From positions 37,138,001 through 37,202,000 of the forward strand of contig OX597829.1 in NCBI GenBank assembly GCA_951406725.2: 64,000 nucleotides of DNA. The letters are read 5' to 3'. Position numbers and translations under genes: made by a program. This DNA comes from Octopus vulgaris (taxonomy: Eukaryota). Below are positions 8,496 to 63,569 of this stretch, piece after piece (position 1 is the stretch's first letter; each line of letters opens with the position of its first letter). A model generated the notes under the pieces. That model was not told the DNA's origin. It ran no database searches and saw only the letters and a list, made by a program, of their open reading frames with translations.

Positions 8496-9248
8496 ATCAA
8501 ATGTGAGGATAAAATTCTTTTCGAAAAAAAAAATATTTCTCGAAAAAAATTTTATCAATGGCCAGCATATTAAAAAATACCTTTAACGGTTAAATTTATA
8601 AACAATTCATAAATGAGGGCAAAGGAAAAGATTTCTAATGCCAAATATGCCAAAAAATTGGACATATTGTCCATTAACCATATAATTTTTTTCACAATAC
8701 GCACGCTACTCAAAAAAAGGCCGACAGAAATTTCTAAAAAATTCCATTATTACCATATCGGACCGATTTCAGAGTTAGCTACTAAGAGCCCTCTCTTCTT
8801 CAGTGATACATGTGGCAAAAGAAATAAATGAGATACTTACTCGCACCCATGGAAGAAGCAAATACTAAGTCATGGGCACAACTAAGTACCCCAAATACAT
8901 CCAAAATAGAAATACTCCAGCCCATTCGAGGCACGTGCGATTTGAACTGAGATTCTCACAGAGTGAATTAGTTAGTTCGGAAGTGAACGCTTAAATTTAT
9001 ATCAAATGTGAGGATAAAATTCTTTTCGAAAAAAAAAATATTTCTCGAAAAAAATTTTATCAATGGCCAGCATATTAAAAAATACCTTTAACGGTTAAAT
9101 TTATAAACAATTCATAAATGAGGGCAAAGGATCTAATGCCAAATATGCTGAAAAATTGGACATATTGTCCATTAACCATATAATTTTTTCACAATACGCA
9201 TGCTACTCGAAAAAAGGCCAACAGAAATTTCTAAAAAATTCCATTATT
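8496..9248 (-). mobile_element. Retrozyme-like / PLE pseudo-LTR partial tandem (1.5 x ~500-nt unit) containing an HHR
   Basis: 8496-8751 repeated at 9001-9248; HHR motif at 8751-8808; left end runs into (TA)n. Confidence 0.7.
8751..8808 (-). ncRNA. Minimal type-I hammerhead ribozyme (C3-G8 core intact)
   Basis: Minus strand UAUCA-CUGAAGA-AGAG...CUCU-GAA-AUCG(GUC)CGAU-A-UGGUA; stems I, II and III can all pair. Confidence 0.75.
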
Positions 9249-10226: not shown

Positions 10227-11025
10227 CGAGGGGCGTTCAATAAGTAATGCCCCTGACCCACTTCCCATAGCAGTAGAGCAACGGAACTTGGCACAGTTAT
10301 TAGTCTTTTTCTACATAGGAATCACCCAGAGTTACGCATTTCTCCCATTGTTTGATGCAGCTCTGGAGACCGTTTTTGTAGAAGACCCCAGCTTGGTCCT
10401 CCAACCTGAACGTGACTTCAGAAATCAAGGCTGCATCATCTGGGAAACGCTTTCCTTTCAAAAACAACTTCATGACTGGGAAGAGGTGAAAATCAGAGGG
10501 TGCAAGGTCAGGAAAGTAGGGGGATGGGGGAGGAGTTCATAGCCATACGCCTGTGCTTCTGATCTGGCGACAAGCGAGTTGTGGACCGGAGCGTTGTCCT
10601 GCAGGAGGAGGATGCCTTTGCTGATCTTGCTCCGCCTCTTGATTTTGATAACTTCTCTTAATTTCCTCAAAAGTGAAGCATAATAGACTCCTGCAATTGT
10701 GGTTCCCTTTGCCAGGAAATCTGTCATCACTACTCTGTCGTGGTCCCAGAAGACTGTGAGCATGACCTTGCCAGTGGAGGGCTGCAACTTTGCATTCTTT
10801 GGAGGGGGTGATCATCGTGATGGACCCAGGTTTCATCCTGTGTAATCAGTCTTTTGAAAAATTTTGACTCATCTTCTTGGCACATCTCCAAATCAGAAAC
10901 CACAATTAATTCAGAACTAATTTGCCACTTACTCTATAGAGATATAAATGATTGCACATGCAAAATTTCAGCTAGATCAAACAACTGCAAGTGGGTCAGA
11001 GGCATTACTTATTGAACGTCCCTCG
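10227..11025 (-). mobile_element. Internally deleted mariner (DD34D) transposon
   Basis: 37-bp TIRs (CGAGGGGCGTTCAATAAGTAATGCCCCTGACCCACTT, 2 mismatches), TA TSD, motifs ITQDETWVH, GKVMLTVFWD, LLQDNAPVH, PDLAPSDF; N-terminal HTH region absent. Confidence 0.9.
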
Positions 11026-24207: not shown

Positions 24208-24491
24208 AATATTGTTCCGTATGTCTAAGTTCAACAAAAAAGAGTGCTTCGCCTAACGAGAGTAACTATTGTTTTTCATGATCACCTCACATGTATGGCC
24301 CACACTACTAAAAGTTTCATGCACATGGAACACAAGTTGGTTTAGAATTTACTGTTTCATTAGCATTTTATTGATACATTTTTAACTTATTTCATAACAA
24401 AAATCCACCATTCTCAGGTAAAATTTTAAACACACATAAATGGACAAGGTAAAACTAGATGACCTATTTACCAACTAACATGATGAACAAT

Positions 24492-24580
24492 AAAATTTAC
24501 CTGAGGATGGTGGATTTTTGCTGGGGTGTAATCTAAGAATGCCTCAATAAAATGGTACCAAAACAGCTGTAGTAAATTTT
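24492..24580 (+). ncRNA. Type-I hammerhead motif with long stem II, G12 mutated
   Basis: AAAAUUUAC-CUGAGGA-U-GGU...ACC-[A]AAA-C(AGCU)GU-A-GUAAAUUUU with a perfect 9-bp stem I. Confidence 0.65.
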
Positions 24581-25504
24581 AAACCCCATTTCTGTTCTTT
24601 TATACATGCATCACACCTGGAACCAACCCTGGTTTAGATCTCAAGGTTTTGATTTGGTATTTGTATGTGTGAGTGTGTACACATACCTGTAATATACTAT
24701 CAACAAATGACACCTAATGGTTGTTTTACCTTACTGTGAACTCAGTAAGGTAAAACATTCATGAGGTTCTACACCATCAGATGATAGTACTCTACATTTT
24801 ATTTTTTTATGATGAGCATGCCACACTTTTAATCCTGAATTTGATCCTGATATCTTTACTGACTATCTGCACTGTTGAAACCAGACCATTTATTTTACAT
24901 TTATTTTTACTGAAGATCTTTAAGTTATCTATATATAACAGGTGATTTAAAGTTGATTTAACTTTTCTTCATTTTTCAAGGTGTATCCTGATGTCACTTT
25001 CTGTAACATCTGTGTTAAGTGTATATCATAGAAATCACAAACAGCAATGGCAACATATTACTTCCCTGAAATATGCCTCTCCTAAAGACAACCTTTGTGA
25101 AAAATTTTCCTCATGGTATTAACTATGAATTCCAGTTCTCTATTGATCTCTTAATAAAATTGAAAATGTTGTCAGATATCTGTACCAACTCAAGACCTTC
25201 TAAAATTATAATTGATCCATGCCATACCCAGATTAGTATGGCTTTTCTTACCTGTCTGTCTATCAGAAGTTGATCCTTTGTCCCTCAGCTTTTCCTCCTG
25301 TATCTATTCTATTTCACTGCCAGTTTGTAATTTATTTCCAGGAAGTCAAACACACAATTAGAATTTATTCTTATCATCAGCTTCCACATCAAGGGTAGTG
25401 TTTTGGAGATCACTAAGGATAGCATCTTTTTTTTATTGAAAGCTGCCACATTTTATATATAAAAAAAAGGACAGCTGTAATCCAACATTATTCCTTAGAG
25501 TGGG

Positions 25505-29691: not shown

Positions 29692-30024
29692 TTCGTTTTT
29701 GGATTTGGTCTGCAAGATTCTTTATATGAGTTCATGTGTTGAAGCATATTCTGTTGTGTCTGGGGAGAGTCATTCTCTTTTAGTGCCTTATTATTTAACA
29801 CACTCACCGGTAAAATTTCCACTTATTTTTTATTTTTATTTTCTAAAATTTTTGTTGCGTCTTGCAACCTTTTCAATAGTCTTGACTCTCAAGACTATTG
29901 AAAAGGTCGCAAGACGCAATGAAAATAGAAGACTATTGAAAAGGTTGCAAGACGCAACGAAAATTTTTTTCGAAAATAAAAATAAGAAATAAGTGGAAAT
30001 TTTACCGGTGAGTGTGTTAAATAA
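29692..30024. mobile_element. Short fold-back retroelement with three U3-A8 hammerhead-like units and a 12-bp TSD
   Basis: TSD TGTTACTTTAAT at 29680-29691 and 30025-30036; inverted arms centred ~29887; same family as 48434-48655. Confidence 0.8.
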
Positions 30025-31149
30025 TGTTACTTTAATGTTTATCTTATTTTTTATTCTATATTTTTATATTTTGTATTTATAATTTTATGTTATCTTATTT
30101 TACTGTATCTTTTATTTAAAATTCTACTTTTCACTTTTTATATTTTTATATATATTTTATAACTGGTATTGAGCACATATCCATCACTAGCTATTAGTAA
30201 TACTCTTTCCTCATTATCTGACACTCAGAACTACACTCAGTCTAGATACCTCTGTCTACGTAATTTTGTGTTATTTTTTTTATAAATGCATACTACTACC
30301 TTCTATATTACTATATTTTGTATTATTTTCTAAACTGTTATATTTTTCTCTCTTTGTAATACTCTTATGCCATCTAACCCCAATAACTATGCTTCATTAC
30401 CCACTATTGCCTGATCATTTTGTGTTAAAGTATTCCTATTCTCTGAGTGAGTATGTATTTTTCTGTGTATGTATATAAAGATGTGCACATTTGTGTAAAT
30501 TCATATATGCATGTTCAGGTGTGTAATGATATATGTAAGTGTGTGTGTATGTGTGTGTGTGTGTATGCATGTGTTTATGTATGTGTGTGTGTGTATATTT
30601 ATATGTAATGTTCCAGCATGGCCACATTAAGGTGGAGGTGGTTCTTCAACATGGCCACAGTCAATGACTGAAACAAGAAAAAAGTATATATATATCATCA
30701 TAACCATCATCATCATTGTTTAATGTTTTCCATGCTGGCATGAGTTGAATAGTTTGACAGGAGCAGTCCAAACTACAGTTGTCTTCTGTGGCATGGTTTC
30801 TATGGCTGGATGCCTTTCTAATGCCAGCCATTTTATAGAGTATGTTGAGTGCTCTTTATGCACCATTGGCAGGGATACATTTATATGGCACCAACACAAG
30901 GTCATTTTATGTGGCACTGGCACCTGTAAGACAAAGACCTCTCTTGGCTGGGAGAGGGAGGGGCAAAGCCAAAATGGACATGCATGTATAATGGATGGCC
31001 ACATATATCATCATCATCATTGTTTAATGTCCTCTAAGCTATATTTCCCTTCTTCCTCCTCCTCCTCCTCCTCTCTGTCATCAGAGGCTTCCATTATCTT
31101 CTTTTTCAGTATGGTTTGGTTCTCCAAGTCTTTCTAGCCCTAATTCTGA

Positions 31150-32632: not shown

Positions 32633-33728
32633 TGCTGTGGAAGGATACTGATCACCCCCACATAACCAAAAGTGGACCGACTCATTTCTGTAAAATAAAG
32701 AAACTGTCAGCATTTGACATTGTTGATTGTTCATATTGGATGACTGTGTTAGTTTAATATTGTACCTATGTTCGGCATAGTCAGAGTACGTTCTGCATGA
32801 TCATATTAATTTTGCAAAAGGTTATTCTAGATAACCGTATCCAAATATTTATTTGGGTAATACTATTCCTACACCCTTGCGCACATTCCAACTATGTCAT
32901 AACCCAATTGGCAGTGAAGATATTCGAACCCAGGCTGGATAGATTGTTGTTTTCAACATGGAAGAATTATTGGCATCAGTAATTGAATCACACAGAAACA
33001 ACAGCAGCAATGACAGCAATTAGTGGAATTGCAAAAGCAACAGAAACTACTAATACAGTTGCTACTCAACAAAACAGAAAATATATTGACATTGTTCAGC
33101 CCTGATATGGTCACAAACGCCATCAGTGAATTCACATATAACTTAGATGAGGATATTAGCTTTCCTGTGTACTACAGAAGGCATGAGGAGATTTTTAAAG
33201 CAAGATGAAACAAAAACCCAACTTTTGTTGAGGAAGTTGTCCCCAGCTGAGCACAAAAAATACTATAACTACATATTACCAAACAGACCAGAGGAAGTCT
33301 GTTTTAAAGAAACTGTTAATACACTTTCAAAGATTTTCAACTTTATCTAATACACACTGGCAATGATGAATATTACAAAAAATTAGACCCCAAGCATAAG
33401 AAATATTAAACTCTGGATGGAGTTTAATTCGCAGAAAGGGGAGATGTTTTAGAAAGATCCTGACCACCCCCACATGTTCAAAAGTGGACTGACACATTTC
33501 AGTAAAATAAAATAAAGAAACTGTGAACTATCAGCTGTTGACAGTATTGATTGTTTGTATTGGATTACAGTATTAGTTTAATATTGTACCTATATTTTTG
33601 ACATAGTATGGAGTATATTCTGTGTAAACATATTAATTCTGCAAAAGGTTATTCTAGATAACCATATCCAAACATTTATTTGGGTAATACTATTCCTACA
33701 CCCAATCCACACAAATCACATCATAAAA
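32633..33728 (+). mobile_element. Internally deleted Gypsy-type LTR retrotransposon (two ~275-bp LTRs, gag stub)
   Basis: LTRs 32633-~32906 and 33445-33728, 5-bp TSD TTTTG, PBS-like TGGCAGTGAAG, PPT AGAAAGGGGAGA, gag-like LLLRKLSPAEHKKYYNYILP. Confidence 0.85.
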
Positions 33729-36486
33729 TTTTGATTCATTTCTATACCTTTTATTATGAGTGTCTTCAATATTAAAAGAAATATAACTGAATGCATTCAG
33801 TGTTTGGTTTATTTACATATTGTAAACATGCCCAAAAAGTTTGTCCCAAAATGAATTAGGCTGATTGTGCCTTCAAATCATGACATCTGAAGAAGGGAAA
33901 GAACTATACAAATATTACTATATATTTTTATATATTATGGCATGTATTACATAACATTATATATATTGCATAACACTGTATCAGATATGGAATAAATAAT
34001 ATTATTCATTTACAGAAACAATTATAATGTCAATAAGAGAATATTGTAGTTCGCTTGAAGCATTGTGTATTGAGAAATGGGACAGAGAGAGAGGAGATAA
34101 GATCGACCTCTGCATGTACAAGCAGTATTCTTAACTAAATTCCTTTGTTATAGTGTACACAACTATAATGAATAGGGAAGAACTGAGAATCAAATTCATT
34201 CCCTATACTCTAAATTCATTGCTATACTTATTGTTAACTTGCACCTTATTGAAAGTATCTCTGTACATGGCTTTAATTCTCTCACAAGCCTTTTTTCTAG
34301 CTTCCTTGAAAATCACCAGATCACAACGTGATGGACTCTGTTCAAGATTGAATGCAAAGTACAATGACTTATTTTCAGCTAAATATTTCTCCTGTAGTTG
34401 TTCACTAAAATGACATCAGTATTACATCTCCCACTCACAAAACTAAATTTTATCTCATCAACTCTAATTTTGTTCCTAATTAATTCGGGTTATAATTCTT
34501 CATAACTTTCGTGATCTAGTCTGGCAGTTTCATCTTTCTACAATTTCTTGTAAAGTATCTTCTTTACCCTAGTTAACAGCTGACTATGATGCTGCTTCAC
34601 CAATCATTAGATATGTGTATGTGAATATTTCTGGAGAGAAGCAGGGTTGATTTATCAGCGGGTGATTGGAAACAAGTAACTCTGATTAATGAAAATGGGA
34701 ACCTTTCAGTTACTTTTGTGCTGAATCCTGTCATTTACTGCTTCTAATGAATCATCAGAGATTTGTATGTATCTGTATGTATATGTGTGAGATGACAAAG
34801 GTAAAAAAAACAGTTATTTTATGAAATTCAATAGCTTACAGTTGTTTCTGCTATAAGATGCTGCACGGAATTTTGTCAGAGAACAGGTCGCGGTCTCAAA
34901 GCAATAAAAATATTTTGACAAATTAAATTTAAATGTTGAAGTAAATCTAACGGATTTTGTGTGTTTCTTAAGTGGCTCATAAACATCTTCCATGCTGCAA
35001 TTGTTTATTATATATTATATATGTACTGTGTACAATTAGATGTATGATCACTACTGTATGAGTTTCACTTCATGTAGATTATCATTATACAATATTATAC
35101 AATCAGTCTCCAGTATAGTAGTTATTCTCCACTGTACTTAGTGGTGATACTAGTTATGGTATACAGATCACGGGGCTCAACATTAGACGTTCCAAATGTA
35201 TTTGGATGCCTAACTGCAATGGCTCAGCAAGGGAACAATGTTACATTCTTTTAGAGATCAGATATTTGTTCTCTATAATAAAATGTTCCTCCAATGATCT
35301 GTTGTGATGAAGCATCCAAATGCACTTGGAACATCCAGCGCTGAGTTTCAACTGCAATGGTGAAATGTACATAGGAACTAATAATTATACTTATGTTTGT
35401 CTTAATTTTTCCATGTATAAGATGTGTGTGTGCGTGTGTGTCTGTAGACTAATTTGCCCATCTAAATCAGATATTGGTAAGATTAATAAATTTATTATGA
35501 TTATTGATAAGCATTTCCCTAAGCTTAGACAAAATGTTAATTTAATTTATGTTTTTAGTCTAATTTCTTGGAAGTAATTGATTGGTTCAATAATATTAAG
35601 GATAAAAAAAAAACATACTAAATCTGTTCTGTTGGATATATCAAATTATTTTTCATCCATTAACCTTTTACTTCTCAATAAAGCCTTAATTTTTGTGATG
35701 AAGAATTCAAATTTATTCAAACATGAAGTTGCCATTATACTAATAGCTAGGAAGACCATAACAGAATTCAATGGAAAGTACTGGACTAGGACCAATAGAT
35801 CTGATTATTTTGACATTACTATGGGGTCCAGCAACTCCACTCAAGTAACTGATTTAGTGGACATGTACATTCTTAACTGTATACATAGTGAATTTCTTGA
35901 ATTAGTGGGTGGATTATATACAGATGATGTTCTTTTCACTATCCATATATCTAGTAAGGACCCAGAAGAAACTTGTTAAATTCTTTATCTCCATATTCTC
36001 TATTCTTTATCTCCAATTCTCTATCTCCATAGAAAATGATTATACTAAAGTTAACTTCCTCTGGATTTAAAGTTACTCTGGATTTAAGTACAGAACTATA
36101 CCAACCATATCATAAACTGAATGAGTGCTTGAGGTATGTGAATAAAAATTGTAATCTTAGAAGCATCATAAATTCTATCCTTGAAAATATATTAACTCAT
36201 ATTTCAAAGCTTTCTACTAATATGGATGTATTTGCACAAAATGAAAATCACTATAAACCACTCATTATCTAAGCTGGGTATAATGAAAAAATTTACTATA
36301 TCCACAATCAAAATATTAATAAAGTTCCCAGTAATGATAGGATATTAAATATGCTGTAACTTGATACTGAGTGCAATAAAAGTAAATACATCAAGGAATC
36401 TTATTTAAGTAAACTAAGTAATAGCATGAATAAGGATAGAAATATGATCAGTAAAGAAGGAAGTATTGAAAATAAACATATTAATA

Positions 36487-36986
36487 CTAGCAGTATCGCC
36501 CGGCGTTGCTCGGGTTTGCAAGGGAAATAACTATATAAGCATTTTTAGAGAGTGCCAATTTGGGCTTTCTTAGCCATTTCTGTTTTGGTGTCTTCAAGCC
36601 ATGGAGTCGTTGTTCTAAAAGAACGCTGGTCTCCTTGACAACGCATTACGACGTTGATTTCCTTACACTCCCTTCCCCACAGCTTCACGAGGGAGGAAGA
36701 AGGGGGAGAAGCAAACACTGGTGCAGGTGTTTGAGCGTGGACGCCAACTCCGCCGCCATCGACACACGAAAAATTATGCATTAAAATGGAATAAAAAATG
36801 ATGTTAAATTATTTTTAAAATCGTAGACTCATCGTAGACGCGCGCTAATAGCCAGACGGGCTCGATATGAATCACGACTATAAGATACCCGAATTTGGTT
36901 AAACTGCACCGCAAAATGTGGGAGGAGTTAGGAATCTAAATCGAAGGGGACAGACACTCACACAGCTACAGTTTTATATATATAGA
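36487..36986 (-). mobile_element. Non-autonomous Helitron (~500 bp)
   Basis: Reverse complement of 2212-2723 with intact TC and CTAG termini and an A|T target. Confidence 0.85.
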
Positions 36987-37059
36987 TTAACAAGCATAAA
37001 TTTAACTCTGTAGATACTAAACATATGATTGGAATAAACATTAATAATATTAGCAACAA

Positions 37060-37362
37060 ATGGAAGTCTCCAGGAAAAGATGAAGATTCCTAACTTCAGG
37101 TCGAATGCCTTCCCAAGGAGTCATGAATTGCTAACGAAACATTACAACAATGTTTTGCTACAACCTTGTATGATTCTTGGCTAGTTAATGGTGTTACTTC
37201 CAAGAAGTAATGGTGTTACTTCCAAGAAGTAATGGTGTTACTTCCAAGAAGTAATGGTGTTACTTCCAAAAAATGAAGAAATAAATGAACCAAAAAAAGT
37301 ATAGACCCATAATCTGCTTAACAACACTGTATAAAATACTAACATCTGTCTTGACTGAATGA
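37060..37362 (+). mobile_element. R4/Dong-like RT fragment with an internal 21-bp tandem repeat
   Basis: KWKSPGKD...YRPIICLTTLYKILTS; (AATGGTGTTACTTCCAAGAAGT-like) unit x~4 at 37187-37269. Confidence 0.65.
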
Positions 37363-37365
37363 ATA

Positions 37366-37897
37366 TGCAGTTCTATATTTAAGAGATGAGGAATTATGTA
37401 CGTTATTTACATTATTTAGATTTGTTGGTTATTTGTCCTCATCTTGTTTGTTGTTAACACAACATTTTGGCTGATATACCCTCCAGCCTTCATCAGGTGT
37501 CTTGGGGAAATTTGCTTGTCAATTGTTTGACCATAACCAAATGAGTATGTCCCTTAGTGGCTGACAATATGTGCATCTCTGATTACCAGCAGAAGTAGTG
37601 GGGCTGCATCATTGCCATGTGTTGAGAGGAATTGTTTGGGGTTTGGATAATTCACTTCTGGAAACATGGATGTTTTGTTCAACATCCTTAAACAACCCTT
37701 ATTATTTTGACCCAAATTCTAACTGCAAAGTCATGCGCTATTTATCTTGATATGAGATCACCATATTGTGCACATATGGTTATGATGTATGTATCTGGTG
37801 TGCCCTTATTAGATGGGTAGTCATGATGGGTATACTGGGCTTTGTATATTTTACCCTAGTGTTACTTTGATGGCATGCACTGCTCTCTTACTCAGTA
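37366..37897 (-). mobile_element. PLE 3' fragment with hammerhead motif (37456-37501)
   Basis: Minus strand GACAC-CUGAUGA-A-GGCUG(GAGGGUAUAU)CAGCC-[A]AAA-UGUU-GUGUU. Confidence 0.65.
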
Positions 37898-38506
37898 ATT
37901 ATGAATGTAAGTATATGTGTAACTTAAAGCATAAAAGTTACAGCAAGAGAACATCTAATTCTAGAATTAAGAATTATAAACATGTTGATAATGTTAATAT
38001 TAAGAAAAATGTATATATAAATAATAGAAAAACTAAATCAAGGAATATTATCTGGTATAATGGAAATTCTTTGCTGTACTGGATAAATATTTCTCTCCTT
38101 CAAGTAAGTACAGGAAATTGTTTAATTGCCATTTAGTAAAAGTTTCCTATTTTACCACTAGAGATGATTGCAGCACATAACAAAAGTAACATCAGTATCT
38201 CAATTCAAAACTAGTAAACATGAGCAGATCCAATAGTGTAAATAGGGAAATTAGCTCTATTAATAATCTTCATGAACTAGATTTTGGTATTTTAGGTAAA
38301 AGTAATTCCGACTGTGAAAATGATAAAAGCTTTAAAATAACACCTAGTAACAATATTGGTCATAATACAGCTAATAATCCTGCTTTAACACCTACTTCTG
38401 TTTACCATGAGTATCACATACAAGTAAATAAATGCCTTTGTAATTTCAAAAACAAACTTGTGACCTTTAGAAAATCAGTGTTCAAGTAAAAATATAGTGT
38501 ATTGAA

Positions 38507-38573
38507 TTAGCGAATTACAGGAGATTGAATCAGGGAATTACAGGAGATTGAACCAGGGAATTACAGGAGATTG
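38507..38573. repeat. 22-bp tandem repeat x3
   Basis: GAATTACAGGAGATTGAAYCAGG-like units. Confidence 0.85.
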
Positions 38574-39569
38574 TATGTATTATGGCATCTGTTGTTTTTC
38601 TACAATTTGGAAATCTAGATAACATAACCATACTCCTTCATTTAAATTTAGAAGAAAATGTAATTCTATGAATCTTGTTAAATGCATTTAGGATTTAAAA
38701 GATATGTACATTAACTATGATTTGAAGTGGGTTGTTATTAGTTATGCACCATCATACAATGCTGGTAACTTAAAATTTGATCTTTGCCTTGAGGAAATGT
38801 ATTCTAAATTAGAATTGTTAAATTAAACTATAAATAAAACTTTACATTGAAATGTTCTCATAAACATAGAACATTATTTAAATATTTCAGAAAGATTATG
38901 CATATTAGTTTATAAATTTAATATGCATAATTTTTCTAAAGATTTTTTTTTACCATATTTAAAAGGTAGATAACTAATTGTTGTGAGGTAGAATTTCTAT
39001 TAACTAATTATTGTGTAATAGAATTTCTATGTTTATTTTTTATTCTTTCATTATCTACTGACTTCATCAAAAGTTAAATACAAAACTGGTTTTTCTTAGA
39101 ACATATTTCTTCTTAATGTTTTTTTTCTTCTTTGTATGCGTTAATCTATTGGAGATATTTTCTTAGTTTGCTTTGAATTTAGCCCATTTTTGATTGCCTT
39201 GATAAATATGTTAGTATATATTTTCAGATATATTAATTTGACTGGTATTTCATACCTTTTTCTCTATCTAAATATGCTGGCACTATAGAAATGATCATTG
39301 ATAATGTATGGTATAATCATCAATTAAAGATGTGATTTTTCTCCATTCTTGTTCTTGTTGTCTTCTACTCTGAATTTCTTGAAATCCATTTTAGTGATAT
39401 TTGGATTTACTTGTTGAGTTATACATGTTGAATGACGTTCTACTTGAATTCATTGGAATCTGATTGTTTGATATAACTAACCAGATTCATTTAACACTGC
39501 TGACTCGGTTACCTAGGTTACAGAAAGACACCAAACCCCCACCCCCACCCCCCAGATATTTGAGGGCAC

Positions 39570-40500
39570 TTATTTTCTGTACATTCTTAGTTTTTATTGT
39601 ACCTGCACATTTGCTGTTCACAAAAACTACTTTCTCTGATAACCTTCCTGTGATTCTGCTGCCCCTTTTCTGTGTCCATAGTTTTTACTAGGTACACTGT
39701 ATGGAGTTTCTACCAACACCTTCTCTACATATTGAGCCATCTCTCTGAAAGGGTTGGTGATTTGTCTGTTTTCCAACTTATTAGGACTTTGTTCTTTACT
39801 AAATTAACTCTAAGACCCTTTGATTCCACTCCTTGGTTATAGCCTGGAGGACTATGATGAACAAGAGGGTGCTGAGAACCAACCATTGGTTAACTCCTGC
39901 CTGTATACTAAATTCATTTCTACACTCATTGCCAACTTTCATCTTACTAATAATATCCTGTTCATAGCTTATACAGCTCTCAACAACTATTCTTCTATCC
40001 CTAGTTTCTGCACTGATCACCAGATAAGGGAGCAGGCATTCTGTCAGGAAAAGCCAAGTACAGAGGTTTATTTTTGGCTAAATGCTTCTCTTGCAGTTGC
40101 CTTACTAGGAAGATAGCATCAATAATGCTTCTTTCTGACACAAAACCAAACTGCATCTCACCTAGGTTAACTCTCTTCCTAATTAGTTGAGCTATGACCC
40201 TTTCTGTAACTTTTATAACCTGGTCCACAATTTGATAACTCTGTAATTATTTCTTAGAAAGGCATCAATTTTACCTTTGTAGCAGTTGACTATAGTGCTG
40301 CCATGCCATGCATTGGCTATGACTCCCTTGTGGACAACCTGATTAACTATACAGTTGACTAGACTATATTAACTAGATAATTTAAGCATCTCAGTGGTAA
40401 TTCCTTATGAGCTAGGAGCTTCCTATCTTTCATTGGTTTATCTACCAGGCTGCCACCTATTCAAATAGCTGGTCTATCTGTAGGGTCCAACCACTGAAAT
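39570..40500 (-). mobile_element. RTE-like LINE RT fragment
   Basis: MQFGFVSERSIIDAIFLVRQLQEKHLAKNKPLYLAF and GVNQWLVLSTLLFIIVLQA. Confidence 0.8.
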
Positions 40501-42901
40501 TTATTTCCTTCTGATGGTGGGGTAGATGGCACAATAATTTTTAATTTGTATTGTTTCATATGCATTCACTAATACCAATTTACTACATGTATATGTGTGC
40601 AAAATGCACATGACTGTACTTCCCGATCACTGAGTCTCAGAAATAGCTTCAAAGGAATCTCTGCATTCTCCTTTCTCTTATCTGTGATATTAGAGTATGA
40701 ACTCTTTGTATATCTTCCTATCTATGAAGAACTACTATGGGCTTAGACTTGAAATAAAATAGTTTACTGTCATTAGCTTGACTGCTACATTTGCTATAGC
40801 CAGCTCTTGGTTTGCCTGGATGGCATCTTCTGTCATTTGATGTTGGAGTTTAAATATTTGACCTGGTTTAAGCACCAATCTGTCTATATCTGTTATATGT
40901 CTTTTTACCTTTACTCAGTATTTACATTAATAAATGTATATTTTCCGTATATTTTAATTTCCACAGTGCATGTAAACACATTACACACACATCCATAAGT
41001 TCACAAATACATGCACCCGAAATTGCTGACTGCACAAATACACCGTTGTTACCAAGACAATACTAATATAAAAGAAGCAACCACTACCAAAGTCCTTGGC
41101 CAAGTATCTGCCTATACCTGTGTCTTGTATTTTTATTGAAGTACTTTTTGGCCCAAAAGTTAAAATTCATAAAAATGTTTGTTTCAAAGTTAAAACCGTA
41201 GATAAACTTTTTATGATTAATCATCCTAATTAATCCCTTTTTAAAGTTAATAAAGTTAAAACAATGCATAAAGTTAAGATAAGGTTAAAAAATGAAGATT
41301 CATAAAAAAAAATTTTTTTTTTTTTATTAGATACTGCGAAGAATAAATAAATTCATTGATATCTGCTTTTATGTATTGATTAAACCTAAATTTGAGATAT
41401 ATTTCTGCTAGTTTTTATTGGAGAATTTGTACTGGACTACCTCTTTGGAGTTATTTTTAACACTCTCTATGGTTTGTCCTACCCTCCAATGTTGAAAATT
41501 ATTTGACACTATGTGCATCCAGTCATTTGAACACAAACAAAAGTCTAGAATATCTATACAGTTTTTCTCTAAGAGAAATTTCTGGCTTTAAGGGACTTTT
41601 ACCAATATTGGTTATTGGTGATTGATACTAACTGCTAATATTGATTATTTGCATCATTTTTCCAATTCATGTAACAGGCCTCTTTAAGAATAGAATTATT
41701 TATTACAATCCAATTATAAGTGTATCTACTTAGTTTTAATTCTTTGTGCCTGTTATGTAGGAATTTTAAATGTACCATCAAAAGTAAGTACTTTTCCTTA
41801 CTATTATTTTCACTATACCTAAATGTACAGAATGCTGGATATTTCTTAATATTTCTGTATATATTTTTTATGTATTTTTAAAATTTGTTGTTAACTATTT
41901 TATGTAAATTTTTATCTGAGATTAATTGAACTGAATCAGCTGTTGTGCTGCTAGGATTTTTTGGAAGTTGATTCTGGAGTATTTTTGTCATTGCCTTATT
42001 GAGCTCACTAGTCCAAGTTTGAAAAGTCTCTTTGATTTTTATTAATAAGTCACTGTCATGTCAATCTATGTGCTGAAAATATGTTGATATGCTTCATGCA
42101 AACTCAGTTGAAAATTGCAAGAGCTGATCAAAATGTATTTTTAATTGTTGATGAAAGTGAGATTGATGACAAAAAAAATTGTTAATGTTCTTATTGGTTC
42201 AGTTAAAAATCCTCAAAAAACATTCTTAATAGAATACTTGTCACTCACATCAGCTCTAACTGCTGTAGTCACTGCTCCAATCATCGATGATTTGTAGTCT
42301 TGTGAAATCCCATGTAGCCAAGTCCAAAATGGAGATAGTTTTTCTACTATTTTCAATGTGGAGCATTGTGTCATCTGAAGCATGAAATTATTATACAAAA
42401 TCCAGAAATAAAGTATCTATCCACCAATGTGGTGTTTAGCACTCAATTTGACTCTTTGCCACTATCATGTACACACGCACATAATATATTTTCATGTATG
42501 TCTGTCTGTACATTCATGTATAATGTATAAAAAGGTATATCATACATGTGTATTTATCTTTTATCTTGTACTTGTTTCAGTCAGTGGACTGTAGTCATGC
42601 TGGGACATTCAGTTGAAACAAATCAATTCCGTTACTTATTTCTTAAATTCTGGTACTTATTCTAACAATCTCCTTTGCCATACTTCAGTAAAAACCTCAT
42701 ATCAATAAATTTGCATTTATATTATATGGTTTGAAGGTCTTTGTCAGTATTCAGGCTGATACAAGCACTGGTATTTTACTGAGGATTTGTAATAAAGGCA
42801 TTAGTATGTATATGTTTATGTATGTCTGTTTATGTTTGTATGTGCTTGTTTCTTAGAGGTATGAGTATGATATCTGTATCCTCATTCATTCAAAATCAAA
42901 C

Positions 42902-42947
<46 letters not shown>

Positions 42948-42976
42948 CCCTGTAAATTTGGATTTATTCCCAATAA

Positions 42977-43029
<53 letters not shown>

Positions 43030-43033
<4 letters not shown>

Positions 43034-43156
43034 GCAGTGTGGCAGATGTTTGTAAGCCATTTAAGAACACACAAAAACTGTTAGATTCACTTCAACATTT
43101 AAATTTAATTTGTGTCAGAATATTTTCGTCACATTGAAACTGTGACTTGTTCACTG

Positions 43157-43160
<4 letters not shown>
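43030..43160 (-). mobile_element. Short HHR-bearing repeat in (TA)n with G3-C8 hammerhead core (43113-43157)
   Basis: Minus strand UCA-GUGAACA-A-GUCAC(AGUUUCAAU)GUGAC-GAA-AAUAUU-C-UGA; homologous plus-strand copy at ~34870-35003. Confidence 0.7.
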
Positions 43161-43206
<46 letters not shown>

Positions 43207-43207
<1 letters not shown>

Positions 43208-43355
43208 GGCGTTAGGAAGGGCATCCAGCTGTAGAAACATTGCCAGATAAGACTGGAGCCTGGTGCAGCCTTCTGGCTTCCCAGATCCCCAGTCGAACCG
43301 TCCAACCCATGCTAGCATGGAGAACGGACATTAAACGATGATGATATAAATATAT

Positions 43356-43420
<65 letters not shown>

Positions 43421-43575
43421 CATCATCATCATCATTTAATGTCTGCTTTCCATGCTGGCATGGGTTGACTGAGGGCTGACAAGCCAGAAGGCTGCACCAG
43501 GATTCAATCCGATCTGCCAAAGTTTCTACAGCTGGATGCCATTCTTAATGCCAACAACTCTGAGAGTGTAGTGGT
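43207..43575. mobile_element. Two family B (GAT)n-tailed repeats tail-to-tail around (TA)n
   Basis: 43207-43345 (+) and 43420-43575 (-) are mutually reverse-complementary. Confidence 0.8.
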
Positions 43576-44704: not shown

Positions 44705-45452
44705 ATCAAGAAGAGAAAAGATCAGGCCAGTGAGATGGTGGAGAGGCCACTAGCATTTTGGGACACTGTCATATTCTCTGAAGAGTCCAGATTTGCTGTA
44801 TTTCCTGACAGTGGTTGAGTGTGGGTCTGGAGACTCTGTGATCAAGAATTTGATGTGAGAAGATTGCAGCCAACAATGAAACACAGCAGCTATTCTGTGG
44901 TGGTCTGAGGAGTAATTTGGAGCAATGGTTGACCAGAGTTAGTGGAGTGTGAGGGAAACATAAACTGAGATAAATATGTGTCCATATTGCAGAATTAACT
45001 CCTTTCAGTTTTCTCCAGTGGTGAAATGATTAAAGAAGACTCTTTAGTTATGGAAGATGGGGATCCTTGTCACATGGCTAAAATGACAAGATTTGGATGA
45101 GAATAGTATTAAAAAGCTTCCACTGCCAAGCCAGTCACCAGATAAGAACCCTATTGAACACCTCTGGGACATAATGGACAGAACACTTCATAAAAAGAAC
45201 AAGAAGACATCTTCAAAGCCAGATCTTTTAAGACTGCTGCATGAAACTTGGCAAGAAATTCTGCAAGAGAATATTTGTCATCTGATCAGTAACATGCCTT
45301 GCATGAAAAGTGCAAGGGCATGTCTACTAAATATTAAATATTCACATTATAACAATTAATAAATAATTTGAATGTATAATTTCAGATTTAAATAAATTTG
45401 AATGATTATAAGGCTGTCTATTTACTTCTGTCATGTTTGTGTATGTATACTA
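44705..45452 (+). mobile_element. Tc1 (DD34E) transposase fossil, 5' truncated
   Basis: WDTVIFSEESRF, MEDGDPCH, PSQSPDKNPIEHLW motifs with stops and frameshifts. Confidence 0.8.
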
Positions 45453-46089: not shown

Positions 46090-46715
46090 GATCTATATGA
46101 TTTTGTATGTATGCTGACCTCAAAAATAATTTCACAAATCTTATGTGGCTTGCCAATACAGCCATTGTTACTCCAATAAATGAAGCAGCACAATTTGTGA
46201 ATGATTTTCTGTTGACCAGGATCCCTGGTGAGCTAAAAATATACAGAAGTTCAGAGTTCATCAACAAACTTACACCATCAGGGTTTCCACCACACATTCT
46301 CAAACTGAAGAAAAAACGATGTATAATGTTTCTGAGAAATTTAGATGCTACTAATGGACATTGCAATGGCACAAGCTAAATTATTGTCAGTTTACATGAT
46401 CATGTTATTGAGGCTGAGGCTGCTTCTGGTCCTTATGCAGGATCAACTCTGCTAATCCCAAGAATACCACATGTATCTCAAGAAATGGAATTTCTATTTC
46501 TTGTCAAGCCAGCTTTTGCCTTGACGTGCAGCAAGGCACAGGGACAGACTTTTGAACAAATTGGAATATATCTTCCGACACAATTCTTCTCGCATGGTCA
46601 GCTGTATGTTGCATTATCTAGAGTTCGAAAGAAGGCTAATGTAAAATATTGGCTGAGAAAAATGGAAACAATATGATTACTGACAATTGTGTCTACAAGG
46701 AGACACTACTTTAAA
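46090..46715 (+). mobile_element. Helitron RepHel (PIF1-type helicase) C-terminal fossil
   Basis: AIVTPINE, INKLTPSGFPPHILKLK, IMFLRNLD..NGHCNGT, PAFALTCSKAQGQT, FFSHGQLYVALSRV. Confidence 0.85.
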
Positions 46716-48433: not shown

Positions 48434-48655
48434 TTTCGTTTTTGGATTTGGTTTGCAAGATTCTTTATATGAGTTCGTGTGTTGAAGCATATTCTGTTGT
48501 GTCTGGGGAGAGTCATTTTCTTTTTGTGCCTTATAATGTAACACACTCACCGGTAAAATTTCCACTTTTTTCTTATTTTTATTTTCCTAAAATTTTCATT
48601 GCATCTTGCAACCTTTTCAACAATTTTGACTCTGTCCGTTATTTACACTGCGTTC
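48434..48655 (-). mobile_element. Second copy of the U3-A8 hammerhead-bearing short element
   Basis: Colinear with 29692-29890; minus strand UUG-UUGAAAA-G-GUUGC(AAGAU)GCAAU-GAA-AAUU-U-UAG at 48586-48625. Confidence 0.7.
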
Positions 48656-49860: not shown

Positions 49861-49965
49861 TAGCCCCACCCTGTATACTTATTTTCATTTTGTGTTATTA
49901 AACTTTGAAGTATTTTTTATCTTGATTTACCTTATTGTAATGTTGTTTCTCTTTATTTATTTCAG

Positions 49966-51234
49966 AGATTAATAGATAAAAGCAAAGTTACTTGTATTAA
50001 ATGGATTCCAGGATCTCGAAACCAGTTTCTAGTTTCACATGCAAGTGGACAAATATATGTATACAATGAAGAGCTCCCATGTTGTGGAGCACCTCCTCAC
50101 TATCAGCCTTTCAAACAGGGAGATGGATATTCAATATACACATGTAAGACCAAAAGTACTCGGAATCCGCTATATCGTTGGCTTGTTGGACAAGGTGCTA
50201 TCAATGAGTTTGCATTTTCTCCTTGCTCTCGATTCTTAGCTGTTGTTGGACAGGATGGTTATCTTAGGGTATTCAACTATGATTCCATGGACTTAGTTGG
50301 ATCTATGAAAAGCTATTTTGGTGGACTTCTTTGTGTATGTTGGTCTCCTGATGGCAAATATCTTGTTACTGGTGGAGAGGATGATTTAGTTACTGTCTGG
50401 TCATTTCATGAAAAAAAAGTAATTTGTAGAGGAGAAGGACATCGGTCATGGGTTAATGTAGTAGCCTTTGATCCTTACACATCAAATTTTTCTGATACAG
50501 AAGGCTGTGATTTTAGTGGTAGTGATGAAGAATTTCATTATGGGACATTACATAACCATGAAGGGAAAAGTGAAAACTCTGTTCATGAAACTAGTGTGTT
50601 AAATCGATCAAGGACTGGATCAAATAAAAGTTTTTCTGACACTCGGACAACAAATTTTACGTCATATCGTTTTGGTTCTGTTGGCCAGGATACATTTTTA
50701 TGCTTATGGGACTTGACAGAGGATGTTCTTAAGCAACCTGTAGGTCGTACAAGGACAAGTACCATTATTGGACCAAATGCATTTAATTATATGTCCCGTT
50801 GTAATAGTCTACCAAATTCTCAAAAATCTAATTCCTTGAACACACAGGTACCAGTTGTTGATGGAAATTCTCTGCCAAATGCATCTGTGAATATCACTGC
50901 TAAATTTGCCACACTGTCTCTTGGAGATAGAAAAGATAAGGATCATGAAAAAAAGGAACACAAAAGAAATTTAAGTTTAGCTGGCAGAAGCAGTGAAAAA
51001 GTAAGCATATTGAAAACCAGTGTTCGGCCTATTGATGAGTCTTTAAAATTACTTGGAACTCCAGCTTGTCCACGCTTAGATGAAATTCCTATGTTGGAAC
51101 CTCTTATATTTAAAAAAATAGCACATGAACGGCTAACAGCTTTAGTTTTTAGAGAAGAATGCATTGTTACTGCATGTCAGGAAGGTTTTGTTTACACATG
51201 GGCTCGTCCAGGAAAAGTGGTAAGTTTCACTTAA
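49966..51234 (+). CDS. WDR20: WD repeat-containing protein 20 (WDR20/DMWD family, USP12/USP46 activator), large internal or terminal exon; N-terminal exons not seen in window
   Basis: Polypyrimidine tract + TTTCAG acceptor ending 49965; open phase-0 frame RLIDKSKVTCIKWIPGS...TRNPL...MKSYFGGLLCVCWSPDGKYLVTGGEDDLVTVWSF...YRFGSVGQDT.LCLWDLTED...KKIAHERLT...WARPGKV; donor GTAAGT at 51220 or stop TAA at 51232-51234. Confidence 0.95.
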   Translation, partial: RLIDKSKVTCIKWIPGSRNQFLVSHASGQIYVYNEELPCCGAPPHYQPFKQGDGYSIYTCKTKSTRNPLYRWLVGQGAINEFAFSPCSRFLAVVGQDGYLRVFNYDSMDLVGSMKSYFGGLLCVCWSPDGKYLVTGGEDDLVTVWSFHEKKVICRGEGHRSWVNVVAFDPYTSNFSDTEGCDFSGSDEEFHYGTLHNHEGKSENSVHETSVLNRSRTGSNKSFSDTRTTNFTSYRFGSVGQDTFLCLWDLTEDVLKQPVGRTRTSTIIGPNAFNYMSRCNSLPNSQKSNSLNTQVPVVDGNSLPNASVNITAKFATLSLGDRKDKDHEKKEHKRNLSLAGRSSEKVSILKTSVRPIDESLKLLGTPACPRLDEIPMLEPLIFKKIAHERLTALVFREECIVTACQEGFVYTWARPGKVVSFT

Positions 51235-53823: not shown

Positions 53824-54229
53824 ATAGTTTCATTAAGGGATAAAAAATATCCAATGAATCACTGGTTTATTGCCTATTATTTTGTTGTGAATAGTAATAT
53901 TCTTAAAATAATAGGTTAAAGTATAAATCTTGGTTTATAAATATTCAAATTAAAATTCAGAAAATGGAGATGTATCATTAATATAATTTATTAACTGCAA
54001 AAATTAGACATGTTCTCTTAGAGCTGTTGCGTTTCAGCCCAAAGAGTTCAATTCCAGTAATTAAAACATTTTTATTGGGCAAATAAATTACTGGAATTTA
54101 ATTCTTTGGGCAAAAACACAACAGCTCTAAGAGAACATGTTGAATTTTTGTAGTTAATAAATTATATTAATGCTTCATTTCTATTTTCTGAATTTTAACT
54201 TATATATATATATATTTGTGCATAAATAT

Positions 54230-56890: not shown

Positions 56891-57710
56891 AATTCTTCAG
56901 AGCAAAAATACCTTCTGGGTGAGATGGTGGTGTTATCTCCCTTAAAGCTGTTCCAATTTTGTCAGAAAAAGGGCAGTTTATATACATTTTCCATTTACTA
57001 ATCAGCAAGTGAGGAAGTCCATTTTTCCAACAAGAACTTTCCCTCATGAGGGCACGAGAGCATCAACTAAACACTTCACTTTTGGAATTCAAGAAGGTCC
57101 CTGGATCAGGTGAATTTTTTAAGATCCATGTCCTCTTGACCAAGCGAAGTTTGTATTATCTTCTCCCATTGAGATATGGTTCCAGCTGTTCTAAGAGCTT
57201 CCACTTAATTGTGTATGGCATTTCCCCTTCTTTTAAATACCATATGTAATTGGCTAAATATATGGCATTTAAAGTAGAGGAAATGCCATGCAAGTTTAAA
57301 TGGAAGCTCCATGAACAGCCTGGACCATTATACCTCAACAGGGTAAAGATCTTAATAAAATCCCTTGATCTGAAAGTTTTCTTAAATTCCAAAAGTGTAG
57401 TTTTTAGTTTGTGCCCTCATGAAAGAAAATTCTTGTTGGAGATATAGACTTACCCATTTCCTAACTAGTGAATGGAAATTGTACATAAACTGATCATTTT
57501 TAGATAACACTTGAATCTCACCCAGAAGGAGTTTTTGCTTTGAAGAATTTCATTTCAGGGTTTTTATTTTTCACACCTTTGCTGACGAATACTATATTCT
57601 TACCACCATTAGTAAAGATTATGTGCCTCCAGCCAGCAGGTCTGATGATTTGTCTATAGATGTGAAACCAATGGTAACTTTCTGGCCAGACGTAATCAAT
57701 GGCTACATAA
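56890..57710. mobile_element. Head-to-head inverted Naiad-type PLE 3' ends; right arm ends in an HHR (57632-57686)
   Basis: LANYIWYLKE...IKWKLLE and LNSKS.VFSLCPHERKFLL on opposite strands, centre ~57250; GCCAGCAGGU-CUGAUGA...GAA-ACC(AAU)GGU-A-ACUUUCUGGC. Confidence 0.75.
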
Positions 57711-60667: not shown

Positions 60668-60829
60668 TAAAAAGTAAAAGAGTCAAATGGAAGAGTAAGT
60701 ACAGTTAAGCAGCTTTTTAATCACTACAAATGTTTCAATACTTACAGATCCTCATATATACAGAATTTAAAGTTAAGTTTAAATAAAAAATTATGTAATG
60801 ATTTACCTGTATAAGAAGAGCTATATATG

Positions 60830-61792
60830 TACCGGTGGCACATCAGAAACACCATTCAAGCATGATCATTATCTGTGTCACCTTACTGCCAGTTGTGCTG
60901 ATGGCACTTGAAAAAACATTCGAGCGAGGTCGTTGCCAGTGCCGCTGAACTGGATCTTGTGCAGGTGGCACATAAAAAGCACCATTTGAACGTGACCGTT
61001 TCCAGTACCGCCTAACTGGCCCTCATGCCGGTGGCACGTAAAAGCACCTACTACACTCTCGGAGTGGTTGGCATTAGGAAGGGCATCCAACTGTAGAAAC
61101 TCTGCCAGATCAGATTGGAGTCTGGTTCACCCATCCGGTTCGCCAGACATCAGTCAAATCGTCCAAACCATGCTAGCATGGAAAGCAGATGTTAAACGAT
61201 GATGATGATGATGAACATTACTAAAATATATAAAACATGCAATGATAAACTGGAAAACCAGTATAGCATAAATCCAGAGAAGAAGCCCACTCTTTTATAT
61301 CTATATCATTTCCCCCTCCAAATTTTAAAGAGGCCATAGGCCAACAGGTCTTTGGGCCTGAAGATACACCATAAAGGTAGCCTATAAACCAGCCTTCACC
61401 AGTAATATATCATCATCATCATCATCGTTAAATGACCGCTTTCCATGCTAGCATGGGTTGGACGATTTGACTGAAGACTGGCAAACCAGATGGCTGCACC
61501 AGGCTCCAATCTTGATCTGGCAGAGTTTTTACAGCTGGATGCCCTTCCTAATGCCAACAACTCTGAGAGGTTAGTGCGTGCTTTTACATGTCACCGGCAT
61601 GAGGGCCAGTTAGGCAGTACTGGCAGCAGCCACGCTCAAATGGAGTTTTTTATGTGCCACCTGCACAGGAGCCAGTCCAGCGGCACTGGCAACAACCTCG
61701 TTCGAATGTTTTTTTTCACGTGCCACTAGCACAAGTGCCAGTAAGGCGAAGCTAGTAACAATCATGCTTGAATGGTGCTTTTTACGTGCCGC

Positions 61793-61795
<3 letters not shown>
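60830..61795. mobile_element. Two long family B repeats in inverted (tail-to-tail) orientation
   Basis: 60830-61213 (+) and 61410-61795 (-) are reverse-complementary over ~380 bp. Confidence 0.85.
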
Positions 61796-61826
<31 letters not shown>

Positions 61827-62552
61827 CATCAAGAAATAAATATAGTTTCTTTCTAAAGAGACAAAGTGTTAATAGGACTGCAAAAAAGAAGTGCTCAAAT
61901 AAATGAAACAAGGATCATTAAACATTGGTCATAGAACAAACATTAAAATGAATTAGCAACTTTATATACGGTATCAAACCTCCAACATGCATCATATATA
62001 AATAAATATTACCATGGCTTTCATAATATATAAATCAAAATATAAAATATATAAGACATACAAATACAGAAAACCAACAAAGGTAAAAAAATATACATAT
62101 ATGTGAAAAAAACATGTATAGGAACATCCCATCAAAAAGCAACTAAAAATTTATAAAATTCTTAAAATACTAAAAATGTGTCATGTTGAAAAAGTTGAGA
62201 AAATGAGTAAACAAATAAAGAATAAATCGACTAAAAAGTTTTTTTTTTTACTTCACTCACACCAAAAGGTAATAATCCATGAGTAAAATACTTCGAATCA
62301 AAAAATACATCCACACAGACTATAATAATTCATGAGTAAAGTTACTCAGATTAGACTAAACACATCATCTATGGCCATTTCTGGAGCGCATCACCATAGT
62401 TTGATTGCAATTGACACACACACACACCACACACATACATATATCATCATCATTTAACATCCGTTTTCCATGCTAGCATGTGTTGGACAGTTCAACCGGG
62501 GTCTGGGAAGCCAGGAGGCTGCACCAAGCTCCAGTTTGATCTGGCAGTGTTT

Positions 62553-63569
62553 GAAATCCTTAAGCTCTATGGGATACCAGACAAAATCATTTCTGCCATC
62601 AAGGTCCTCTACACAGATACGTCTTCAACCATCATAACCCCTGACGGAGAAACATCATCTTTCTCAATCAAAGCCGGAATACTGCAGGGAGACACACTCG
62701 CCCCATTTCTTTTCATCATTGTTGTTGATTATGTGCTACGTATGTCAGTTGATACCATCTCTGGCAAGGGCTTTGAAATAAAACCAAGAAGAAGTTCCAG
62801 ACACCCAGCTGAGTACTTGACAGACACTGACTTTGCTGACGACATCAATCTTATCAGTGATTCTCTCTCCAATGCCCAGTCTCTTTTACAATCTCTTGAA
62901 CAAGCCTCAAATTGTGTAGGTCTTTACCTCAATGAGGCCAAAACTGAATACATAAACAAGTGCCTATCCAACAGTGATTGCATCATCCATACTCTCAACA
63001 ATGCGCCCTTAAATATGGTTTCTGATTATAAATATCTTGGGTCATACATATCATCATCTGGAAAAGACTTTCTAACTAGAAAGGGTATGGCCTGGTCAGC
63101 CTGTAATGACATGCATAAGATCTGGTCATCAAATCTAAGTAGAGACTTCAAACTTGAAATCTTCAAAGCCACAGTCGAACCAATTTTACTATATGGCTCA
63201 GAAACCTGGACGTTATCAAAGAAGCTTGAGAGGCGGTTGGATGGAACCTACACTTGCCTCCTTATGAGAGCTCAAAATCTCTCGTGGAAGCACCATCCAA
63301 CCAAAATGCAAATATATGGGAAACTACCACCTGTATCATCTCTTGTGAAAGGTAGAAGAGTCCAGTTTGCTGGACATTGTTGTAGAGCTGAAAAAGAAGC
63401 CATCTACTCGCAATACCAGAGGGCGCACACTCTCCTACCCTGATGTAATCTCCAGGGATACAGGCATCCAGCAACAGGACATCCATAATGCCATGATGGA
63501 CCGTGAAGTCTGGCGTAGCATGGTAAATTCCATTGTCTTCACCACGGACGAACAATGATGATGATGATG
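62553..63569 (+). mobile_element. 5'-truncated RTE-clade LINE inserted into a family B repeat
   Basis: GILQGDTLAPFLFIIVVDY, DFADDI, YKYLGS, LLYGSETW; (ATG)n tail; TSD AGTGTTT at 62546-62552 and 63570-63576; host repeat continues on both sides. Confidence 0.9.

Follow-up and report, generated by a model that had tools for sequence, protein, structure and literature searches.

Two decayed copies of an abundant octopus repeat with minimal hammerhead motifs and a likely parental G3-C8 core pair

Two hammerhead motifs on opposite strands

The DNA discussed here (hereafter, the window) is a stretch of 64,000 nucleotides from Octopus vulgaris (assembly GCA_951406725.2, contig OX597829.1, positions 37,138,001 to 37,202,000), eukaryotic in character and rich both in AT and in repeats. 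Within it lie two copies of one repeat, on opposite strands and between unlike flanks, each of which carries a more or less decayed minimal hammerhead ribozyme motif in which the core pair between positions 3 and 8, conventionally C3-G8, is inverted to G3-C8. We name the copies after the position of their G3, 43154 on the minus strand and 34879 on the plus strand (Table 1). Our preferred reading, to which we would give a probability of about 0.65, is that both sites derive from an abundant repeat, of which they are 5'-truncated and decayed copies, that this repeat is the likely terminal repeat of a Penelope-like element (PLE), that its minimal type I motif likely had G3-C8 already in the parent, and that slow cleavage is to be predicted for it.

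The 43154 motif is the better looking of the two. Its stem I is short (3 bp, 43157-43155/43117-43115) and leads into the core G3 U4 G5 A6 A7 C8 A9, an extra A (43147) and a stem II of 6 bp (43146-43141/43133-43128) with the closing pair G10.1-C11.1; beyond stem II come G12 (43127), A13 and A14, the palindrome AAUAUU (43124-43119), C17 (43118) and the second strand of stem I, with a predicted cleavage site at the 43118/43117 junction. Every feature of a type I core is present (U4 G5 A6 N7 A9, G12 A13 A14, A15.1-U16.1, H17 and three stems in type I order), as are several traits of PLE minimal hammerheads, namely the extra base 9.1, G10.1-C11.1, a longer stem II and a palindromic stem III. What both copies lack is the literal C3/G8 of the familiar CUGANGA core, and in its place a Watson-Crick G-C pair is possible in each of them (2/2). 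A strict hammerhead descriptor returned 43154 as the single G3-C8 match in the window and none in 60 second-order Markov simulations, the same simulations yielding one match over all 3-8 pair types, a U3-A8. At E ≤ 1, an Rfam search of the window returned no hammerhead, likewise missing the C3-G8 and U3-A8 minimal motifs described below, and the minimum-free-energy z-scores of the two G3-C8 motifs are ordinary (-0.91 and -0.61), so that the signal resides in core plus stems and not in stability.

The 34879 motif retains a stem I of 7 bp (34872-34878/34916-34922) and has U at position 17 (34915); its core has suffered the changes U4A and G12A, and it therefore falls short of a type I core, and its stem II contains one C-A mismatch and is closed by a G-U pair. 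Given U4A and G12A, this motif is probably dead, judging from its letters, and 43154 is probably crippled, with its stem I down to 3 bp and a predicted pairing between its C17 and G3. Efficient cleavage is unlikely for either window copy, and both are probably fossils with no role for the host.

The initial annotation had proposed that the two sites are homologous, that both keep G3 and C8 and that 34879 has a 7-bp stem I, and on all of this it was right: the letters that it quoted at 43113-43157 (minus) and 34872-34922 (plus) are exact on re-reading, G3 and C8 stand at 43154/43149 and at 34879/34884, and the copies are 81.8% identical across 154 bp. Over 125 columns, 16 transitions and 4 transversions separate them, and no third copy of the repeat was found within the window. 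Since the chance that four independent transversions gave both copies their G3 and C8 comes, as a rough estimate, to ~4e-9, the swap would appear to be older than either insertion.

An abundant repeat and its likely carrier

The unique DNA that borders 43154 is present, at least in part, in 20 of the 24 sequencing runs listed, and half of it or more in six; contigs of four of the 24 (X2, X3, X13 and X23) were aligned onto 43026-43164 at 80% likeness. All four runs gave aligned contigs (5065, 3727, 1789 and 426), and the ratio of peak summed depth to per-contig depth puts the repeat at 47,000-83,000 copies, or at 1,500-2,700 if positions are counted 31 times each, figures that are best taken as rough bounds. 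The repeat probably exists in thousands of copies, and probes drawn from it found no loci in metagenome and viral contigs.

Across the aligned depth, N17 is U in 98.6%, 98.6%, 98.9% and 100% of the four runs, and the C17 of 43154 is consequently private to that copy. G12 is altered in 7-10% of the aligned depth and C11.1 in 1-10%, the two positions together forming one CpG. As read by eye, the loose-end consensus has a GC-rich stem II of 5 bp (GUCGC/GCGAC) and a stem I without the 2-nt insertion, and the loose ends of run X13 (33 contigs) continue upstream in a manner that resembles copy 34879 and restores the 7-bp stem I. Depth across positions 3-8 is nearly flat, running from 8989 to 8697 in X2 and from 6099 to 5896 in X13. 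The alignment's difference table is empty for 43129-43157, some 30 nt at the aligned end, even at the known differences 43131, 43133, 43141 and 43143, and the argument that the parent had G3-C8 is thus a phylogenetic one. Both independent copies, together with the abundance of the repeat, support the existence of a G3-C8 minimal-hammerhead lineage, and to this extent the family proposed in the initial annotation stands.

The likely carrier of the parental motif is a PLE terminal repeat. The published consensus of PLE minimal hammerheads (PMC4209133, Fig. S3) has a base between 9 and 10.1, G10.1-C11.1, a palindromic stem III and AU-rich flanks, and most PLE hammerheads are described there as solitary motifs. 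With these 43154 shares the type I order, the extra base 9/10.1, G10.1-C11.1, a stem II in the range of 5-6 bp and a short palindromic stem III, and its family shares with them a frequent U17 and solitary, dispersed copies; the window copies differ in the G3-C8 swap, which is the sole mismatch of 43154 to the consensus, and in having no linked PLE open reading frame (ORF) in the frames scanned. A conserved stretch continues past the 3' end at 43030 in 90, 100, 53 and 21 contigs of the four runs, and joints were seen in the aligned contigs, four to the opposite strand and two that go back, each in one contig apiece. These features call to mind PLEs, for which tails, inversions and partial tandems have been described (PMC8557442), the (TA)n target of 43154 is likewise in keeping with a PLE, and the self-complementarity of stem I may contribute to the opposite-strand joints. 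In four contigs from three runs, an inverted tail (43092-43113) is joined to the motif where it begins, close to stem I (43157-43158). The tandem arrays that characterise retrozymes of the non-LTR (long terminal repeat) kind are absent, both window copies being solitary. The possibility that the family is a tail known from published Naiad, Chlamys or Hydra elements was considered and rejected: seven of eight short probes were absent, with the caveat that line breaks could hide a probe, and the eighth gave a 10-letter chance match inside an ORF.

The 3-8 pair, catalysis and competing explanations

Other forms of the 3-8 pair also occur in the window (Table 1), and the initial annotation had counted three of the four Watson-Crick options there and had taken them as natural covariation in support of the fold. 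The count is correct, in that G3-C8, U3-A8 and C3-G8 are all present, the last as a single copy with no family shown, but the claim about the fold went too far. Crystal structure and compensatory mutants had already secured the C3-G8 pair (PMC3884650, PMC9901934), so the variety of pairs in the window adds nothing that the fold needs, and the tail of the C3-G8 copy shows no similarity to that of the G3-C8 family (anchored alignment, p 0.78), which means that these two do not amount to phylogenetic covariation. Between the U3-A8 and G3-C8 families, A7, U17, colinear tails and a similar stem II are held in common (with U-A as against C-G at the third pair). Anchored tail alignments to the G3-C8 family give p 0.004-0.009 for all three U3-A8 copies relative to AT-matched window DNA, and unanchored tests of six pairs give p 0.001-0.20 against shuffles, values that must be read in the knowledge that the copies are non-independent, that the DNA is AT-rich and that the likeness was noticed before testing. 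This suggests, at the level of sequence, that the two families are distantly related, and the difference between them may represent one real compensatory event between possibly related families. Natural U3-A8 hammerheads have been published (PMC3088659; Schistosoma Cercyon PLEs, PMC4209133) and, like G3-C8, represent a natural compensatory change at 3-8; U3-A8 keeps the pyrimidine-purine geometry and lies two transitions from C-G, whereas G3-C8 inverts the geometry and its G3 can pair with a pyrimidine at 17. Pair counting on a six-row alignment (two-sided change at 3/6 pairs; 2/500 shuffles) was set aside as powerless, since it draws on two families, its structure came from the same sequences and one row is a 13-nt duplicate of another. 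A further candidate at 24501, with G12A and a stem II region of 50 nt, was rejected as doubtful.

In hammerheads the general base is G12 and the acid is the 2'-OH at position 8 (PMC6155905), and minimal PLE hammerheads cleave slowly and act as dimers (PMC4209133; PMC6765202). We would picture a tandem transcript of the parent in which the AAUAUU palindromes of two motifs form helix III, G3-C8 stands in for C3-G8 and positions the 2'-OH of C8, and G12 serves as base for a slow cut after U17, perhaps with the help of the element's protein. The identical core swap, C3G/G8C, is partly active when engineered (Martick and Scott 2006 as cited in PMC11167929 and PMC8495972; PMC9901934), and so is the same swap inside a PLE hammerhead, that of Anolis Poseidon PAc (PMC11167929). 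In the PLE setting, C3G or G8C alone abolishes activity and the double mutant restores it in part, protein being needed (PMC11167929; PMC8495972), and a pairwise scan reported C3G/G8C as the sole rescue within the core motif (PMC9901934). The engineered swap is a laboratory construct, whereas the G3-C8 of the window is natural and seemingly amplified. Position 17 also matters, as the predicted probability of G3-N17 pairing, which comes from a secondary-structure model only, is 0.96-0.99 for C17, 0.31-0.81 for U17 and 0 for A17. Such pairing would lengthen stem I across the cleavage site, mirroring the C3-G17 trap, and the 43154 copy is probably trapped in this way by G3-C17. A G3-C8 variant has been reported to be more active with G17 than with C17, on data unshown in the source (PMC3884650).

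Several points weigh against our reading of the two sites as copies of a slowly cleaving G3-C8 element. G3/C8 is read in the two window copies only (2/2), the contig alignment being uninformative at 43149 and 43154, and what looks like compensation in stem II of 43154 consists of two transitions of the CpG type, possibly neutral decay. Even the family's U17 is predicted to pair with G3, which could slow cutting, and there is no support for seeing U17 as co-adapted to G3, given that U17 occurs in 24 of 56 published minimal hammerheads (our own count, PMC4209133 Fig. S3) and in the window's U3-A8 family. PLE hammerheads are reported to be slow, and mutating them leaves insertion in vitro unimpaired, making them dispensable for it (PMC4209133, PMC11167929). 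No Penelope reverse transcriptase (RT) or GIY-YIG domain was found in 139 of the 191 stop-to-stop frames of at least 62 amino acids (from 19,467 on) together with 13 longer ORFs, and the RT at 62415-63440 lies 19 kb off and looks, by eye, like that of a long interspersed nuclear element (LINE).

The dispensability of PLE hammerheads in vitro also speaks for a parent that had G3-C8 but whose motif no longer cuts, the ribozyme not being needed for spread and surviving as a relic or a protein-binding site; the flourishing of Naiad PLEs without canonical hammerheads (PMC8557442), the predicted G3-U17 pairing and the merely partial rescue by the engineered swap are all consistent with it. We think this unlikely, because reaching G3-C8 takes two transversions, and their outcome, exactly the known pair restored, points to selection on 3-8, while the other core bases of 43154 are canonical and G12 is kept in ~90% of the depth. 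We are more sceptical still that G3-C8 is limited to an old or minor subfamily, with C3-G8 or U3-A8 in most copies of the repeat. The family-wide alignment is indeed blind at positions 3 and 8, and one tail letter common to both copies is, by eye, the majority in the loose ends of X13 but not in those of X2, X3 and X23; at readable majority sites, however, each copy matches the majority where the other differs, as would be expected for independent descent from a master, and the near-constant depth over positions 3-8 also speaks against a minor subfamily, though it is suggestive at most.

The carrier might instead be non-autonomous, a SINE-like (short interspersed nuclear element) or retrozyme-like unit with a borrowed PLE hammerhead, rather than the terminal repeat of an autonomous PLE. 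The lack of a PLE ORF near either copy in the frames scanned and the failure of the eight short probes in the Naiad, Chlamys and Hydra consensus files would fit this, and animal retrozymes have been reported as derived from PLE terminal repeats (10.64898/2026.07.22.740005); the copies are nevertheless solitary and 5'-truncated, without tandem arrays, as are most PLE hammerheads (PMC4209133), and we hold the idea to be quite improbable. As for chance resemblance in AT-rich repeat DNA, the missing Rfam match, the ordinary folding scores and the ease with which loose G3-C8 patterns arise by chance in coding DNA might be cited in its favour, yet with 0/60 simulations matching, all published PLE minimal-hammerhead features except the swap being present, and the motif occupying the same place within the repeat as it does in the U3-A8 family, we give it almost no credence.

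No natural G3-C8 hammerhead was found in the literature searched, of which the coverage was partial and in which the published descriptors are unable to find G3. By our own count, the 56 representatives in Fig. S3 of PMC4209133 comprise 53 C3-G8, two U3-A8, one U3-G8 and no G3-C8, with the same restriction on the descriptors, and G3-C8 is absent from the hammerhead deviations listed in the available part of PMC10085705. In generic G3-C8 scans, none of the 119 viral loci listed passed the first filter, and among the 358 loci listed under a looser one, 10 passed as type I and three as type III, mostly with stems of 3-4 bp. Two of the type I loci were checked as natural G3-C8 examples and both lie in coding frames; the scans yielded no persuasive case, and these loci are not used as support. 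Viral contig L084 (minus strand, match at 101), and also L052 and L090, have a GUGAACA core and an 8-bp stem II, a possible type III under the loose filter that could equally be chance.

A bolder proposal, which we put forward tentatively and hold to be somewhat less likely than not, is that an animal PLE lineage inverted 3-8 to G3-C8, possibly from a U3-A8 ancestor in the same genome, stayed catalytic and multiplied into thousands of copies across several related species. If true, searches based on CUGANGA miss such motifs, which may be present in some elements that have been scored as lacking hammerheads. G3-C8 is familiar from the laboratory, as a rescue mutant, and a natural family of high copy number would demonstrate that the inverted pair is tolerated by selection; a genuine covariation test at 3/8/17 could then draw on thousands of copies, and hammerhead searches should then admit all four pairs. 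The mechanism is unchanged by the finding and this is not a new ribozyme class; in our view, the interest is that nature has seemingly amplified the G3-C8 form, rather than that the fold has gained support.

Surrounding features of the window

Table 1. Hammerhead motifs, repeat copies and neighbouring features of the window
Feature	Positions	Strand	Remarks
Repeat copy B (43154), 5'-truncated	43030..43157	-	hammerhead motif and ~85-nt tail; (TA)n on either side
Minimal type I hammerhead motif	43115..43157	-	G3 43154, C8 43149; remaining core bases canonical; private C17
Repeat copy A (34879)	34853..35006	+	ends approximate; upstream part like family's upstream loose-end consensus; ends in TA-rich DNA
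Decayed hammerhead motif	34872..34922	+	G3 34879, C8 34884; 7-bp stem I, U17, U4A, G12A
U3-A8 family, head-to-head inverted copies	29790..30025		U3 29876 (-) and 29936 (+); partial tandem copy with U3 29898 (+)
U3-A8 copy	48533..48633	-	U3 48620; passes strict descriptor
Short U3-A8 family pieces	8511-8553, 9016-9058
C3-G8 minimal hammerhead	37456..37501	-	C3 37496, G12A; single copy in window; tail unlike G3-C8 family
WDR20 coding exon, large	49942-51222, within 49909-51231	+	top named relatives molluscan (Haliotis 68%, Lottia 67%)
RT fragment (RVT_1, E 1e-11)	62415-63440	+	LINE-like by eye, not Penelope-like
Pif1-type helicase fragments	46101-46673	+	probably Helitron remnant
DDE transposase fragments and one DUF7083 fragment	10473-10787, 45087-45356, 33014-33347	-, +, +
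Long inverted repeats	43207-43553, 60822-61805, 53936-54212, 56891-57549, 24339-24585

The N-terminal exons of WDR20, with its first 136 residues, were not found within the window, and for this reason both G3-C8 motifs may lie in a long intron. Of the long inverted repeats, that at 43207-43553 adjoins the 43154 copy and is an opposed pair of an abundant short repeat flanking (TA)n.

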